In this document: positions 19,759 to 24,845 of the stretch, in pieces
How positions within the stretch are numbered: position 1 is the stretch's first letter
Layout of the letters: each line of letters begins with the position of its first letter
Source of the DNA: a virus
Taxonomy: Duplodnaviria > Heunggongvirae > Uroviricota > Caudoviricetes
Virus record (IMG/VR): IMGVR_UViG_2563366972_000008
Coordinates: 1 to 39,130 of that record
Length of the DNA stretch: 39,130 bases
Strand: one strand, 5' to 3'
Made by a program: the position numbers and the translations under genes
Notes under the pieces: generated by a model
What the model saw: the letters and a program-made list of their open reading frames with translations, nothing else
What the model was told of the DNA's origin: nothing
Database searches by the model: none

Positions 19759-20109
19759 TCAATTGATGCGTTCGCGCGCTGTTTTTGCTTTATGACAGGG
19801 CCAGCACAGACTCTGCAGGTTACTGTCTGCATCCGTGCCACCATGAGCTTTCGGAATGATGTGGTCCACAGTTCTGGCTTCAACGGCTCTCCCATTGCGC
19901 AGGCAGTTCTGACACAGATGATTATCACGCTTCAGTATGCGCGCACGTATGGCATCCCATTTCGAGCCATAGCCACGCTGGTGGCGGCTCAGTCCGCGTT
20001 GATGCTGTACCCATCCTTCGCCACGATGTTTATCGCAGTAACCAGAACTGTCTGTGGTTGTACCTGCACATCCACGCTTACGGCAGGCGCGTGGGATTCG
20101 TGATGGCAT
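19759..20109 (-). CDS. HNH endonuclease, packaging-associated
   Basis: 116-aa ORF with Cys pairs and the H-N-H motif (DHIIPKAHGGTDADSNLQSLCWPCH), immediately upstream of the terminase genes. Confidence 0.8.
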   Translation of the reverse strand: MPSRIPRACRKRGCAGTTTDSSGYCDKHRGEGWVQHQRGLSRHQRGYGSKWDAIRARILKRDNHLCQNCLRNGRAVEARTVDHIIPKAHGGTDADSNLQSLCWPCHKAKTARERIN

Positions 20110-20151
20110 AAATACCTCATACCCTGCGAAATGTTTACCACGATAAAAAGG

Positions 20152-20619
20152 CTACTTAATGCACTGAGTGCGGATATATTCCTGCGCCCCTTCCAGTTGC
20201 ATCTGCATCGTCATCAATCGGTCTCTGAGGGTGAAATAATCCCGTTCAGCGGTGTCTGCCAGTCGGGGGATGGTTGCATTATCCACGCTGGTGGGTCCGG
20301 TGGCTTCACGCACGGCTGCGGAGCAACTGGCATTGACCCGCAGGCGCTTACGGCCAGCGGCAACATCAGCGCGCAGAGTTTCATTTTCAGCTTGCACATT
20401 GGCTAATTCTCTCGAGTACTTTGCATCGAGCGCAGCAACATCACGCTGACGCTGCTGCATGTCAGCGATGGTGGCGATCGCCAGCTTCAGCTCACTGACT
20501 TTTTTATCACGCTGTTCTTTGTAGGCGATGGCGTTATCACGGTAATGATTGACCGCCCACGACAGGCAGACGATGATGCAGATAACCAGAGCATAAATAA
20601 TCGCGGCGACTCTGCTCAC
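20152..20619 (-). CDS. Rz: Spanin inner-membrane subunit Rz
   Basis: Translation from GTG 20619 ([31 protein letters not shown]...) matches lambda Rz as recalled. Confidence 0.85.
20214..20399 (-). CDS. Rz1: Spanin outer-membrane lipoprotein Rz1, embedded in Rz in the +1 frame
   Basis: 61-aa ORF with lipobox (LAVSAC) and proline-rich [14 protein letters not shown], like lambda Rz1. Confidence 0.75.
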
Positions 20620-21149
20620 TGATCTATCCCCCAACAGGCTAATGCGCTTTCCTGGTCACGACGAATAACCTGTCCATAGCAGTTATTTGAACGTATGCGG
20701 CAATCGCGCCCACCATCTTTTATCCACCAGCGAATCGCCTCGCATGCGCCCTTACGATCACCGGCATTCAGCCGCTTATAAAACGTCGACGGAAAACACT
20801 TACCGGGGCCAATGTTATAGGGACAGAATGATGCGATACCGGCTTTCTGTGGCTCGGTCAGTGGAACTTTTATATTGCGCTCCACCCATGCCAGCGCCTT
20901 ATCACGCTCAATGGCATTAACCTGAGCGCATTTTTCCTTCGACAGTTTCATTCCTGGTACGACTGGCTTACCGTCCACCATCGTTGCTCCCCGACAGATG
21001 GTCCATATGCCGGAGCCATCGCGGTATGCAGTGGTGTGATTCCCCTCTTTTTCATCCAGAAACTGATCGAGAATGTCAGGGGCAGGAGCACTGGCGGCAA
21101 TCAGTGCCAGAACAGCGGCCGACAGGCTGTATCTGATTTTTACGTTCAT
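20616..21149 (-). CDS. R: SAR endolysin (phage-21 R-like lysozyme)
   Basis: N-terminal signal-anchor-release segment followed by the E-x8-D-x5-T catalytic triad ([16 protein letters not shown]). Confidence 0.9.
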
Positions 21150-21242
21150 GGATATTTATCAGGATGCTACCAATGAAAGATACTGGAAAGCCAACTGCAA
21201 AAAGCTAACAACCCGTAATCGAGTTATCAGAACTGTTAATTT

Positions 21243-21518
21243 TTATGGTATACCGCGCCTCTGAACAGGGCGCGTTTGTGGCAACAGCTCGTCCCCTTCA
21301 CATAACCCGGCAGCAACATCCAGGAAGACCTGTCTGATGCTCCTTCTGGCTGCTGCCTCATAAAACTCCAGCGCGGCACCTTCAACACGGTCCAGCGAGA
21401 TGTCCAGGTCAAAAATTTCACCGTCAAAGCGTTTTTTGTCCCGTAACGCTAAAGTTACCGTAACTTTATTCTCAAAATTGCGGATCCCTTTCACAATCAC
21501 TTCATAGTTTTGAGTCAT
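21243..21518 (-). CDS. Hypothetical protein between holin and endolysin
   Basis: 91-aa ORF whose ATG follows the holin stop by a few bases with a GGAGAG RBS in the holin 3' end; no hydrophobic segment. Confidence 0.5.
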   Translation of the reverse strand: MTQNYEVIVKGIRNFENKVTVTLALRDKKRFDGEIFDLDISLDRVEGAALEFYEAAARRSIRQVFLDVAAGLCEGDELLPQTRPVQRRGIP

Positions 21519-21522
21519 TGAA

Positions 21523-21738
21523 TTACTCTCCCCGTGCAGCCTTACGCTTGTCTTCTCTGATTTTGAAGTACAGATTTGTCAGATAAGTCAGGAAGCCCAG
21601 AACCAGACTCCCCAGTACACCAATCGCAGCCCACTGTGAAGGACTGACCTGATCAAGCCACTGTAAAAACCAGTAGCCAGCACTGCCTGCGGAGGTGCCG
21701 TAGGCAATGCCCGTTGAAATTTTGTCCATGGATTTCAT
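21523..21738 (-). CDS. S: Pinholin, S21-like class II holin with dual-start motif
   Basis: 71-aa translation [27 protein letters not shown]... matches phage-21 S as recalled; two TM segments. Confidence 0.9.
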
Positions 21739-21802
21739 AGCCTCACCTCCGCAAATAACGGATGGCGTAGTTTTACACTGAGAAATGAAAGGGATTTGAA
21801 AA

Positions 21803-21823
21803 GAAAAACCCGCAAAAGCGGGC
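21803..21823 (-). terminator. Rho-independent terminator between tRNA array and lysis cassette
   Basis: Hairpin GCCCGC-tttt-GCGGG followed by a U-run on the minus-strand transcript. Confidence 0.4.
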
Positions 21824-22030
21824 GAAACGATATATACAGAAAGGAAAGCACTCTATCCAACAAACCAACCACAGTTAATCGGAATAAAAGCAGAGTGCTT
21901 ATGAATGATCGCCTGCCCGAAGGTTAGTATTTCTGCACAGCAATTTTGCAAAAAAAGGCGATCATTCATAACTTAAACGTCTTTCAGTCACTCCGGGATT
22001 TCCCATCATCGCAGACTGAAAGACTCTAAC

Positions 22031-22105
<75 letters not shown>

Positions 22106-22108
22106 ATA

Positions 22109-22184
<76 letters not shown>

Positions 22185-22186
22185 AC

Positions 22187-22263
22187 TGGACCGCCACCGG
22201 GGACTCGAACCTCGCACACTCAACTTAAAGGGTTGACGCTCTTTCCTGATGAGCTAGTGGCGG
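22187..22263 (-). tRNA. tRNA-like gene with noncanonical anticodon loop CCUUUAA (possibly Lys-UUU; C at position 33)
   Basis: Acceptor CCGCCAC/GTGGCGG, T-arm with TTCGAGT loop and encoded CCA; anticodon loop lacks the usual U33 and the T-stem has one mismatch. Confidence 0.55.
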
Positions 22264-22264
22264 T

Positions 22265-22340
22265 TGGTGGCCCTTGCTGGATTTGAACCAGCGACCTGGC
22301 GATTATGAGTCGCTCGCTCTCACCACTGAGCTAAAGGGCC
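22265..22340 (-). tRNA. tRNA with CAU anticodon, ileX/ileZ-like (Ile2 or Met)
   Basis: Acceptor GGCCCTT/AAGGGCC, anticodon loop CUCAUAA, TTCAAAT T-loop, CCA; resembles the Ile2 tRNA carried by lambdoid phages downstream of Q. Confidence 0.8.
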
Positions 22341-22460
22341 GGGCGCAGGATAATAACGTTACGAAATCAATGTTGCAAGCATTCAAGAATCACCTGGTTA
22401 AAAATTACCCTTACTTCCTCCACCAGCGCATTCACCCTGTCTATCCGAGATAAGTGGCAC

Positions 22461-22487
22461 AAAAAAACCCGCTTGATGCGGGTTTAA
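22461..22487 (-). terminator. Rho-independent terminator; candidate late-operon tR-prime
   Basis: Hairpin ACCCGC-ttgat-GCGGGT preceded on the forward strand by A7, so the minus-strand transcript has hairpin plus U7. Confidence 0.45.
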
Positions 22488-22530
22488 GTTGTGTGGCGAA
22501 GCGACCACTCTTAACAGATTAAGATAGTTT

Positions 22531-22560
22531 TTGCGTACGCGTTAGTGATTTTTTCATAAT
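22531..22560 (+). promoter_or_regulatory. Putative sigma-70 promoter for the plus-strand three-gene cassette
   Basis: TTGCGT, 18-bp spacer, CATAAT, then the first cassette ORF. Confidence 0.4.
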
Positions 22561-22572
22561 TATCTGTATCCT

Positions 22573-23484
22573 GTGGCTATTTCTCTTGCGCAAAGGATGC
22601 TTTTGATGACGCAGCAACTCGAAAACATGCCAATAACAGAAATCGAAATTGCCTACGGTGGAGAGGCATACGCAGATAATCAGATCGACGCGAAAACATT
22701 AGGCGAAGCCTTAACCTCTCTTAGTGCCCTGATTGAACACGCCGAAAAAATAATTAATGGCGAAACAGCAGAGCCGAAAGTCAACATCAAGGCAACAAAA
22801 GAAGGTTCATTTACTTTGCTTGTTGCTGTGATGGGGAGCATAAAAACTATTAACGCCCTTGGCCTCGTTGCAGGTGGTGGAGTTGCCGCAGGTGGCGTAC
22901 TCGGGATAATCGAATGGCTCAAAGGGCGTAAAATCAGCTCCATTGTCGTCGATGAACAAAAAGATACAGCAGAAATCGAAGTGGATGGTGAGAAGGTTAA
23001 ATGCAGTAACGACATTCAAAAATTAATAACCAGTCCAATCATCCGAAAAGAACTGGATAAATTAATCTATAAACCCCTGCAGACTGAAAAACCATCCACG
23101 TTCTCAGTTTCACAGCAGAAGCATAAGGTAGTCAGGGTGACGCAAGCTGAAGCAGTAAGTTTTAAAACTGCAAAATCCACCTTTGTCGAGAAAACGCACG
23201 TAACGACACGCCAAGCTAATGTACATTTTGCTAATGTTCGATTCAAGCAAGGCAAAAGCTGGGATATCATCCTGCCAAATGGCGAAGAAGTTAGCGCATC
23301 TATGAAAGATGAGGCTTTTCTTGAACGGGTTGAACACAACCAAGCAGCATTCTGTAAGGGTGATCTTTTTGTTGTAGAACTGACAGAAACAACAAAAGAA
23401 ACAAATGGCGCGCTGTCTAAACCACGCTATAGTATTACTAAGGTTATACGCCACAGAGCGGCGGCAGATAGGAAACTACTTTAA
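22573..23484 (+). CDS. Hypothetical protein A of accessory cassette: hydrophobic Gly-rich segment plus beta-rich C-terminal domain
   Basis: 303-aa ORF from GTG 22573; likelier start ATG 22606 behind an AAGGA RBS. Segment LLVAVMGSIKTINALGLVAGGGVAAGGVLGIIEWL; AT-rich codon usage unlike flanking phage genes. Confidence 0.7.
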   Translation: MAISLAQRMLLMTQQLENMPITEIEIAYGGEAYADNQIDAKTLGEALTSLSALIEHAEKIINGETAEPKVNIKATKEGSFTLLVAVMGSIKTINALGLVAGGGVAAGGVLGIIEWLKGRKISSIVVDEQKDTAEIEVDGEKVKCSNDIQKLITSPIIRKELDKLIYKPLQTEKPSTFSVSQQKHKVVRVTQAEAVSFKTAKSTFVEKTHVTTRQANVHFANVRFKQGKSWDIILPNGEEVSASMKDEAFLERVEHNQAAFCKGDLFVVELTETTKETNGALSKPRYSITKVIRHRAAADRKLL

Positions 23485-23487
23485 ATC

Positions 23488-23733
23488 ATGTCAATCCTAA
23501 GCATTATGCTTTACATCACTGTATTCATGGCTGTCGCAGCGACGGTCAGATATGCTGTGCTTAGGTTCTTGGTTTGGGTAAAGCCGAATGCGTATATTGA
23601 ACTAACCTACACCGATCCTGAAGGCAGAACCGCTAAAAGGAAAGTCAGCGTTAGAAACGAAAATGACGCAGAAGAGTTGGCGCTACTGCTACGCGAACTC
23701 AAAACTCGCAACGAAGCAAGTGCAGGAAGGTGA
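23488..23733 (+). CDS. Hypothetical small membrane protein B of accessory cassette
   Basis: 81-aa ORF starting 4 bp after gene A stop; one N-terminal TM helix then a charged tail. Confidence 0.6.
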   Translation: MSILSIMLYITVFMAVAATVRYAVLRFLVWVKPNAYIELTYTDPEGRTAKRKVSVRNENDAEELALLLRELKTRNEASAGR

Positions 23734-24120
23734 ATGGCGAACACTAAATCCTACCTGGCAATGCAGGCATGGTTTACCACCCTTATCACTGCGGGATTGA
23801 ATTTCCTTTTTGACTGGCTTCCTCAATTAGCCTTCTTCAAATCATTGGCGCCTGGAGCTGCTGTCGGCTTATCTCATGTGGTAATTCTTCTTATCGCTTA
23901 CATAGGTTTGCCTACGCTTAATGATGTAAGAATGAAAAGGGAAATAAAAACGGCCAGAAAATTCATCACGAACTGCCTGGCCAACCCTAACCTAACACCA
24001 GACCAAATTGCGCACTACAACCAATGTCTTATCGATCTAGACAATAAGCTATTAAAAAACATAAATATTCGTATTGATGCTTTATCTGACGCCGAATCGA
24101 AAGCTCAAGCAGACGAGTAG
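23734..24120 (+). CDS. Hypothetical membrane protein C of accessory cassette
   Basis: 128-aa ORF; ATG immediately follows the gene B TGA (TGAATG) with GGAAGG RBS; two predicted TM helices then a soluble helical tail. Confidence 0.65.
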   Translation: MANTKSYLAMQAWFTTLITAGLNFLFDWLPQLAFFKSLAPGAAVGLSHVVILLIAYIGLPTLNDVRMKREIKTARKFITNCLANPNLTPDQIAHYNQCLIDLDNKLLKNINIRIDALSDAESKAQADE

Positions 24121-24133
24121 TAACAGTCATAAC

Positions 24134-24493
24134 TTATGATAGAATCAAGCATATACATCCATCAATAAAGCCTAATGCAGTTTGCAGCTCCTTTCTTATA
24201 GTTCCATCTGAGCACCTGCGTTTCTTCGCGATTGAGCGTAGAGAAACACCAATAACAAAGTGAGCTATGAGCAGCTCATATTCCTCTGGTTTATACTTTC
24301 GCAACCGAGCCACACAACCGTCTATCATGATGCCTTCATCATCATCACACTGGAGACGTGACTTTTTGCCATGTGGCAAAAGCCCCTTGAAGCCCGCTGC
24401 TATCGGTTGCCAATCGACACCGCTATTTTCTGCTGCAGCCCATGCCCCCCAGCGATCTAAAACCTCATACATATCACGCCCCATTACCATCAC
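24134..24493 (-). CDS. Q: Late-gene antitermination protein Q (Q82/QuuD-like)
   Basis: Translation ...LDRWGAWAA...IAAGFKGLL...RLQCDDDEGIMIDGCVARL...CSDGTIRKELQ... resembles the phage-82 Q family as recalled. Confidence 0.85.
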   Translation of the reverse strand: MMVMGRDMYEVLDRWGAWAAAENSGVDWQPIAAGFKGLLPHGKKSRLQCDDDEGIMIDGCVARLRKYKPEEYELLIAHFVIGVSLRSIAKKRRCSDGTIRKELQTALGFIDGCICLILS

Positions 24494-24845
24494 CTCTGAT
24501 TTCGCAAATCTTCACGCCCAGTCGCCCACCAGGAACGAGCTGACCGCGCACAATATTGATTTCATCAAACTGCTCGTCGTCTATGAGAAGCCCCGCATGC
24601 GTCAGTGCATCCAGTGGAGCTTTCAGAATATTGTCCAGGTCACGACGGCGCTTATCCGGTGGCTCTGCAATAATCTTTATCGCCAGCCTTCCGGACAGGT
24701 TTAATTTCAGTCGCTGCTGGCGAACAATAAGTGCCACATCCCGGCGATAACGCTCACCGGCTTTTGATACAAAATATGTACTGCCACGACGACGCCAGTA
24801 GGTGTTCACCGTCGGCGGGTAAGGCAAAACAAACTCTATACGCAT
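24474..24845 (-). CDS. rusA: Holliday junction resolvase RusA
   Basis: 123-aa translation with RusA hallmarks (PPTVNTYWRR..., DKRRRDLDNILKAPLDALTHAGLLIDD). Confidence 0.9.
   Translation of the reverse strand: MRIEFVLPYPPTVNTYWRRRGSTYFVSKAGERYRRDVALIVRQQRLKLNLSGRLAIKIIAEPPDKRRRDLDNILKAPLDALTHAGLLIDDEQFDEINIVRGQLVPGGRLGVKICEIRGDGNGA

Follow-up and report, generated by a model that had tools for sequence, protein, structure and literature searches.

Cytoplasmic antiholins such as LydB of phage P1 and RIII of phage T4 are encoded beside holins, and in phage 21 the MKSM dual start of the S21 holin gene yields an antiholin form. T4 Srd and phiKZ Dip are phage proteins that bind RNase E and offer precedents for a phage product that retunes this enzyme. 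In the Qin prophage of E. coli K-12 the gene order is essD (holin), ydfR and rrrQ (lysozyme). A two-hybrid screen yielded residues 1–72 of K-12 YdfR on three occasions, the full-length protein was positive in this assay with just one of several Rne constructs, Rne 1–597, and Rne 1–598 co-eluted with Strep-YdfR (PMC13232886). The host protein RapZ binds the same N-terminal, catalytic half of RNase E as K-12 YdfR does (PMC13232886). A DNase-resistant nucleic acid co-purified with K-12 YdfR, and overproduction of the protein was not toxic and changed few transcripts (PMC13232886). An earlier envelope screen, as cited in that paper, had flagged ydfR, and in a plasmid-library screen ydfR was among the genes that raised the streptomycin MIC threefold (PMC12924614).

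The 91-codon open reading frame considered here belongs to an Escherichia lambdoid prophage and is encoded on the minus strand of a window of 39,130 nucleotides (the whole stretch of DNA that was analysed; IMG/VR record IMGVR_UViG_2563366972_000008). It is a real protein-coding gene of the YdfR/DUF1327 family. Its product shares with K-12 YdfR the DUF1327 domain, the slot between a class II holin and a lysozyme and the same predicted core architecture. K-12 YdfR differs in having another C-terminal tail class (...AEKLSEKVESYLQHQYSFKIENPANKHERPHHKYL), a 4-nt overlap with the lysozyme start instead of a spacer, and no frameshift. The 104-aa proteins of mEp460 (gp55), PhiR47_1, Perceval and the near-identical prophage of E. 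coli MIN10 (WP_000193273.1) are 94–95% identical to the window protein over the first 86 residues. Their genes have an identical holin junction and, once the window frameshift is allowed for, the same 55-nt spacer, with one C of a C4 run missing in the window only. Gp05 of Stx2-converting phage 86 (268 aa) and related forms of 176–287 aa share the N-terminal DUF1327 core and the post-holin position with the window protein, but continue for a further 70–190 residues and are followed by an opposite-strand gene, both of which are absent here. With antiholins of the LydB/RIII type the protein has in common that it is a small soluble neighbour of a holin, as a lysis regulator might be; no sequence or fold relation to DUF1327 was detected, however, DUF1327 also occurs away from holins, and a lysis phenotype is unreported.

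The family, its name and its cassette position are already known in Pfam, RefSeq and the K-12 annotation, and holin-ydfR-endolysin is a common, already annotated variant of phage-21-type cassettes. The interruption is therefore ordinary and its discovery matters little. What value remains lies in the function of a family that about 78% of complete E. coli genomes carry, that would be expressed together with the lysis genes and that one recent study links to RNase E (PMC13232886). Two handles on that function are a 71–76-aa core as the conserved unit and a convergent partner gene in distant phages.

The lysis cassette and the late operon

The features of the locus are as follows.

24134..24493, minus strand: Q
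22031..22340, minus strand: four tRNA genes between the Q region and the holin
21523..21738, minus strand: phage-21-type class II holin (pinholin), 71 aa, dual start MKSM (Phage_holin_2_1, E 1.4e-35)
21526..21531, minus strand: Shine-Dalgarno-like GGAGAG within the holin 3′ end, 7 nt before the ydfR ATG
21523–21525, minus strand: holin stop codon TAA (read from sequence)
21516–21518, minus strand: ydfR start codon ATG (read from sequence)
21243..21518, minus strand: ydfR-like gene (DUF1327), 91-aa frameshifted allele (ORF list; Pfam PF07041, E 1.9e-37)
21268..21270: site of the 1-nt deletion, GGG on the plus strand (CCC on the coding strand), four bases in relatives
21243–21245, minus strand: ydfR stop codon of the 91-aa allele (read from sequence)
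21205..21242, minus strand: out-of-frame relic of the ancestral 3′ end, codons 92–104 plus TAG at 21205–21207 (DNA alignment)
21150..21204, minus strand: intergenic spacer of 55 nt upstream of the endolysin ATG
21149, minus strand: endolysin start codon ATG (read from sequence)
20616..21149, minus strand: endolysin of the phage lysozyme family, 177 aa, with a hydrophobic N-terminal SAR-like segment (Phage_lysozyme, E 1.7e-24)
20152..20634, minus strand: Rz spanin, 160 aa (Pfam Phage_lysis, E 8.5e-47)
20214..20399, minus strand: Rz1, 61 aa, embedded in Rz (Pfam Rz1, E 4.5e-18)

The order of the late operon, all on the minus strand, is Q, four tRNA genes, holin, ydfR, endolysin, Rz/Rz1, HNH endonuclease and small terminase subunit. 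The ydfR gene thus lies within the Q-dependent late operon, directly after an S21-type holin, which is the usual slot of the family. Read directly, the coding strand of the holin/ydfR junction is GGAGAG-TAA-TTCA-ATG, so that the ATG stands 4 nt past the holin stop, exactly as the initial annotation had described it. This junction, GAGAGTAATTCAATG, is unchanged across a four-sequence alignment of the window, PhiR47_1, mEp460 and Perceval. The gene is also extra to the lysis set, as had been said, with holin, endolysin, Rz and Rz1 all separately present by Pfam. The roughly 90 bp of non-coding DNA reported ahead of the endolysin need a correction. The gap between the ydfR stop and the endolysin ATG does measure 93 nt, but 38 of these bases (21205–21242) belong to the end of the ancestral reading frame, stop codon included, which leaves 55 nt of true intergenic spacer.

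The view that phage-21-type cassettes normally run without interruption does not hold, as K-12 has the same gene order and, of 5426 complete E. coli genomes, 4248 carry DNA resembling the ORF, at up to eight places per genome. The order holin-ydfR-lysozyme is found in mEp460, PhiR47_1, Perceval and the MIN10 prophage as well. Among the fetched viral loci, the slot lies between a class II holin and a lysozyme wherever both flanking genes can be aligned, and the ydfR ATG stands 4 nt past the holin stop in every fetched related locus with an alignable holin end. In a scan of the genome collection with a narrower alignment, matches were confined to Escherichia and Shigella and two contigs of metagenome-assembled genomes (MAGs). 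The protein is a known cassette component to the extent that it is routinely annotated as the occupant of this slot; its function there is unproven.

Several other features of the region were seen. The tRNA set at 22031–22340 comprises Gly-TCC, Thr-TGT, Lys-TTT and one tRNA with a CAT anticodon, which is called Met by ARAGORN and tRNA-Ile by RefSeq in the near-identical MIN10 prophage. An Rfam search of 20000–24600 returned nothing beyond these four tRNAs. The stretch from Q to the tRNA genes also holds an insertion of three ORFs (303, 81 and 128 aa; 22573–24120, plus strand) that run opposite to the late operon. In PADLOC the product of the 303-aa ORF hits PDC-S42, a candidate defence model (E 3.3e-53); Pfam has no match for any of the three, and the block looks like a defence-type moron. 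Folding of the RNA of the spacer between ydfR and the endolysin gene gave a z-score of -1.6, which is not significant. A terminator-like hairpin at 21230–21205 was dismissed as weak, with four GC pairs only, and falls within the ancestral ORF.

A conserved core and a private frameshift

The initial annotation recognised no motif in the protein. It is nonetheless a clear member of Pfam DUF1327 (PF07041), with 127.8 bits against a cut-off of 25 (E 1.9e-37) and residues 1–78 matching positions 1–78 of the 93-position profile. It also matches five PHROG families, to which no function is assigned there, with E values down to 4.7e-46, and phage records and RefSeq genomes list its homologues as "YdfR family protein" or "DUF1327 domain-containing protein". 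Identity to K-12 YdfR (103 aa) is 73% over 83 aa, rising to 58 of 72 positions (81%) for K-12 residues 1–72. The Pfam score, a reading frame that is intact in all 84 fetched related loci and a core dN/dS of about 0.36 together place the ORF beyond chance, and its homology and anatomy are established. No NCBIfam model matches the 91-aa ORF, and PADLOC-DB 2.0 gave no match at E values up to 0.01 for either this ORF or the 268-aa form. Lysis families of Pfam, PHROG or NCBIfam were likewise not hit by the 91-aa ORF, and a sequence-profile search of the PDB with it found nothing under E 0.2. A transmembrane segment is absent, in agreement with the first description; the highest Kyte-Doolittle mean over 19 residues is 0.75.

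In Escherichia members the conserved core covers approximately residues 1–76 and is followed by a variable tail. The family is small, with only 81 matches found when a profile was run against 1.84 billion representative proteins. The most distant of these are stand-alone proteins of 71–76 aa that stop at the end of the core, and one is a tandem duplication. Across an alignment spanning 24–89% identity, Y5, Y53, E54 and A57 are the sole invariant residues over the whole range of the family and L7 and G47 are nearly so; all six are present in the window protein, as are the 18 columns invariant among Escherichia-type members. An AF2 model based on an alignment that includes distant members reached a mean pLDDT of 80.7, and replaced an earlier model from an Escherichia-only alignment that had a pLDDT of 56. 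It places strands at 5–14, 18–27 and 34–43 and a helix at 50–77, so that the core is predicted to be a three-stranded antiparallel sheet packed on one long helix. Blocks within the core have mean pLDDT values of 79–94, and the 10-residue blocks from residue 71 to the end fall to 64, 52 and 48, in line with a variable and probably disordered tail after about residue 77. Foldseek, which had been proposed as a means of identification, returned nothing under E 0.01 from PDB and BFVD, and no functional claim made here rests on fold searches. A double-stranded-RNA-binding domain was considered owing to the RNA co-purification and discarded, as the combination of an alpha-beta-beta-beta-alpha order, a basic face and structural similarity was not found. 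The core is acidic throughout the family, with a pI of 4.6–5.3.

The median core dN/dS is 0.36 (37 distinct Escherichia-type core alleles, 165 allele pairs) and that between the window and the Qin (K-12) type allele is 0.26, values that indicate moderate purifying selection. On alignment and model taken together, the core thus appears as the functional and conserved unit of the family. The tails are of at least three unrelated kinds in Escherichia (proteins of 103, 104 and 114/116 aa), and many truncated or frameshifted singletons occur in the protein collection. Long family members of 176–287 aa continue each of the short tail classes (L004 1661–2467, L096, L100, P0165, P0174), and for this reason it looks as if the 103–116-aa Escherichia forms arose from two-domain ancestors by separate truncations. 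For the C-terminal extensions of the long forms, Pfam gave nothing and the PDB nothing meaningful; the best PDB hit was a KEOPS Pcc1 chain at E 0.005.

The length of 91 aa was given correctly, but it is not the normal length of the family. Among the 84 related loci from phage and viral-contig collections, 69 have an ORF of 104 aa, 10 one of 114 aa and 5 one of 268 aa; the window alone of the 85 loci has the 91-aa form. A DNA alignment with PhiR47_1, mEp460 and Perceval traces the difference to the one C that is absent from the C4 run. Residues 1–84 remain colinear with the 104-aa form, and the frame shifts past codon 84, where the last 20 residues are replaced by seven out-of-frame ones (VQRRGIP). 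The product consequently ends in ...TRPVQRRGIP instead of the ...TRPCSEARYTIKINSSDNSITGC of its relatives, whereas the 69 loci of the 104-aa class run on to the ancestral stop, yielding ...RYTIKINSSDNSITGC. Loss of the ORF through frame changes in close relatives had been envisaged; the opposite was found, with the frame change sitting in the window. No full-length tail of a common class (103, 104 or 114/116 aa) is present, that of the 104-aa class being cut after residue 84. A tail does not define the family, as core-only members exist, and according to the model the frameshift hits the variable, disordered tail only and leaves the core intact. An inverted repeat, CGCGCC-N9-GGCGCG, spans the deletion site in the 3′ part of the ORF (21254–21274) and was unflagged by the terminator scan.

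A gap-free match to the 81-nt stretch around the deletion was found in none of 370 complete E. coli genomes, these being the complete genomes that match the stretch over at least 80% of its length, and the best match was 98.8% over 82 nt. The exact 91-aa protein is nevertheless on record elsewhere as WP_001585811.1, so the deletion is taken as a real, rare allele. A sequencing error was judged unlikely since the identical protein stands under four accessions, on three contigs.

Accessory function and its alternatives

Outside Escherichia-type cassettes the DUF1327 domain is found in other company. Distant core-only members lie between gpM and gpL (L086, L105), between gpL and gpK (L087–L090) and between the tape-measure gene and gpM (L085), and others follow Rz (L093) or precede holins (L091). 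S21-type holins are encoded in 438 phage records and DUF1327 homologues in only 101, so that the gene is not present wherever the cassette is, and the 91-aa protein has neither the membrane association of the canonical phage-21 lysis set nor homology to it. Based on these gene orders, we conclude that the domain is probably not tied to lysis and would be an accessory, position-independent passenger of late operons. The suggestion that the gene could be cargo is compatible with this evidence.

The reading preferred as a whole is that the gene encodes a late-made, soluble and acidic accessory protein, not a lysis component, whose core binds the catalytic half of RNase E, with a change in how RNA is processed or degraded when infection ends. 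Its probability is put at about 45%, slightly below even. Late expression alongside the lysis proteins would follow from the position of ydfR 4 nt past the holin stop with its own Shine-Dalgarno sequence. The product may then act, in the manner of a moron, on a cytoplasmic target of the host outside the lysis machinery. The most likely target would be the catalytic N-terminal half of RNase E, given that K-12 YdfR binds through residues 1–72 and that this region is 81% identical in the window protein; binding could in turn affect the processing or decay of RNA late in infection. Truncation of the tail probably leaves the predicted RNase E activity intact. Target and effect are derived from the study of one homologue, in which the interaction was seen under overproduction only, and a physiological role is unproven even for K-12 YdfR. 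The acidic core argues against direct binding of RNA. The allele, being frameshifted and rare, could be on its way to decay, and the constant adjacency to the S21-type holin in Escherichia could reflect a role linked to lysis.

That adjacency speaks for a regulator of lysis timing, which had been raised from the outset and is not favoured here. Such a soluble cytoplasmic factor, made in a fixed ratio with the holin, would bind the cytoplasmic tail of the holin or the unreleased SAR endolysin and delay or sharpen triggering, much like the cytoplasmic antiholins. Besides the 4-nt distance from the holin stop in every alignable Escherichia locus, the 4-nt overlap of the K-12 ydfR stop with the lysozyme start fits this idea, as it packs the three genes tightly, and so does the flagging of ydfR in the K-12 envelope-integrity screen (as cited in PMC13232886), although deleting ydfR could have disturbed the envelope through polarity on the lysozyme gene that follows it. 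A regulator of this kind would not be expected among tail genes, remote from any holin, where the distant homologues lie, nor to be missing from about three quarters of the phage records that have an S21-type holin, and the holin of the window comes with a dual-start antiholin motif (MKSM) already. Where YdfR alleles agree at 93% or more, the neighbouring holins range from 76 to 100% identity, and in one locus (L080) the endolysin is of another type, so the junctions behave as recombination points and not as co-evolving interfaces. Overproduction in K-12 moreover gave no growth or lysis phenotype (PMC13232886), and a function in lysis timing is accordingly held to be improbable. A decaying remnant with no present function, in which the frameshift marks the gene as dispensable in the prophage, is equally hard to favour. 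The private nature of the deletion, found in one of 85 loci and shared by 0 of 370 matching complete E. coli genomes, speaks for such decay, the protein collection is rich in truncated and frameshifted members, and even the normal short Escherichia forms resemble truncations of the 176–287-aa proteins. The deletion is, however, limited to the variable disordered tail, core-only proteins of 71–76 aa are normal in distant relatives and residues 1–72 of K-12 YdfR suffice for RNase E binding (PMC13232886). Start codon, Shine-Dalgarno sequence and core are all intact, and the allele persists under four accessions on three contigs.

A further possibility, doubtful as it stands, is that the window gene is the orphaned half of a mobile two-gene cassette, the core of which works with a convergent partner, for example as its inhibitor or regulator, and that this copy has lost the partner. 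The idea stems from the distant DUF1327 genes of metagenomic lambda-like phage contigs (L085–L093, L103–L106), where an opposite-strand gene follows 11–49 nt downstream in all nine contexts examined and a GC-rich inverted repeat occupies the gap in five of the nine. The same partner families recur with DUF1327 in different genome slots, phrog_25324 (99–101 aa) in four and phrog_18578 (182–186 aa) in two, which suggests that the pair may move as a unit. An opposite-strand ORF also comes right after ydfR in Stx2 phage 86 (gp06), in Perceval (79 aa) and in the 114-aa class (80 aa). The partners, which further include phrog_10490 and a 70-aa ORF, fall into six or more families with no BLASTP similarity to one another, so that no single one is conserved; they gave no match in Pfam or in PADLOC, where six of the families were searched. 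The class with the 55-nt spacer, the commonest in Escherichia, and K-12 are without a partner, yet their core is still under purifying selection, and the site downstream of DUF1327 may simply be a hot spot for moron insertion. The two ideas can be combined: the DUF1327 core might be the constant half of a mobile cassette (the gene, usually a GC-rich hairpin, and a convergent partner) that moves among the late-operon slots of lambda-like phages, with the partner-less copies between holin and endolysin in Escherichia retuning host RNase E at the end of infection. This composite is quite unlikely to be right in full. If true, phages would be the source of an RNase E effector encoded by a very common y-gene family of E. 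coli, and its partner system would have gone unrecognised.

Variation downstream of ydfR

The spacer between ydfR and the endolysin gene measures 55 nt in most relatives and 343, 370 or 452 nt where an opposite-strand ORF has been inserted; in other phages it is thus a point of recombination or insertion. The enlarged spacers (343–452 nt), seen in some Escherichia phages, hold an ORF of 79, 80 or 104 aa on the opposite strand. It lies at 2050–2419 of the Perceval locus (L003), after the 114-aa ydfR in L067 and L095, and as gp06 at 2477–2791 of the Stx2 phage 86 locus (L004). These ORFs belong to phrog_21218, phrog_2411 and phrog_1853, families with no function assigned. In one further locus (L080, IMG/VR 2923323785_000003) a 104-aa ydfR and the usual 55-nt spacer precede an endolysin with no more than 36% identity to that of the window, which shows a mosaic joint in the spacer.

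The two MAG contigs recovered in the genome-collection scan encode Escherichia-type YdfR. One is labelled "Veillonella parvula" (L098) and carries the 103-aa Qin (K-12) type; the other is labelled "Bacillota bacterium" (L100) and carries a long form of 206 aa. Both are probably E. coli prophage DNA that was mis-binned into the MAGs.
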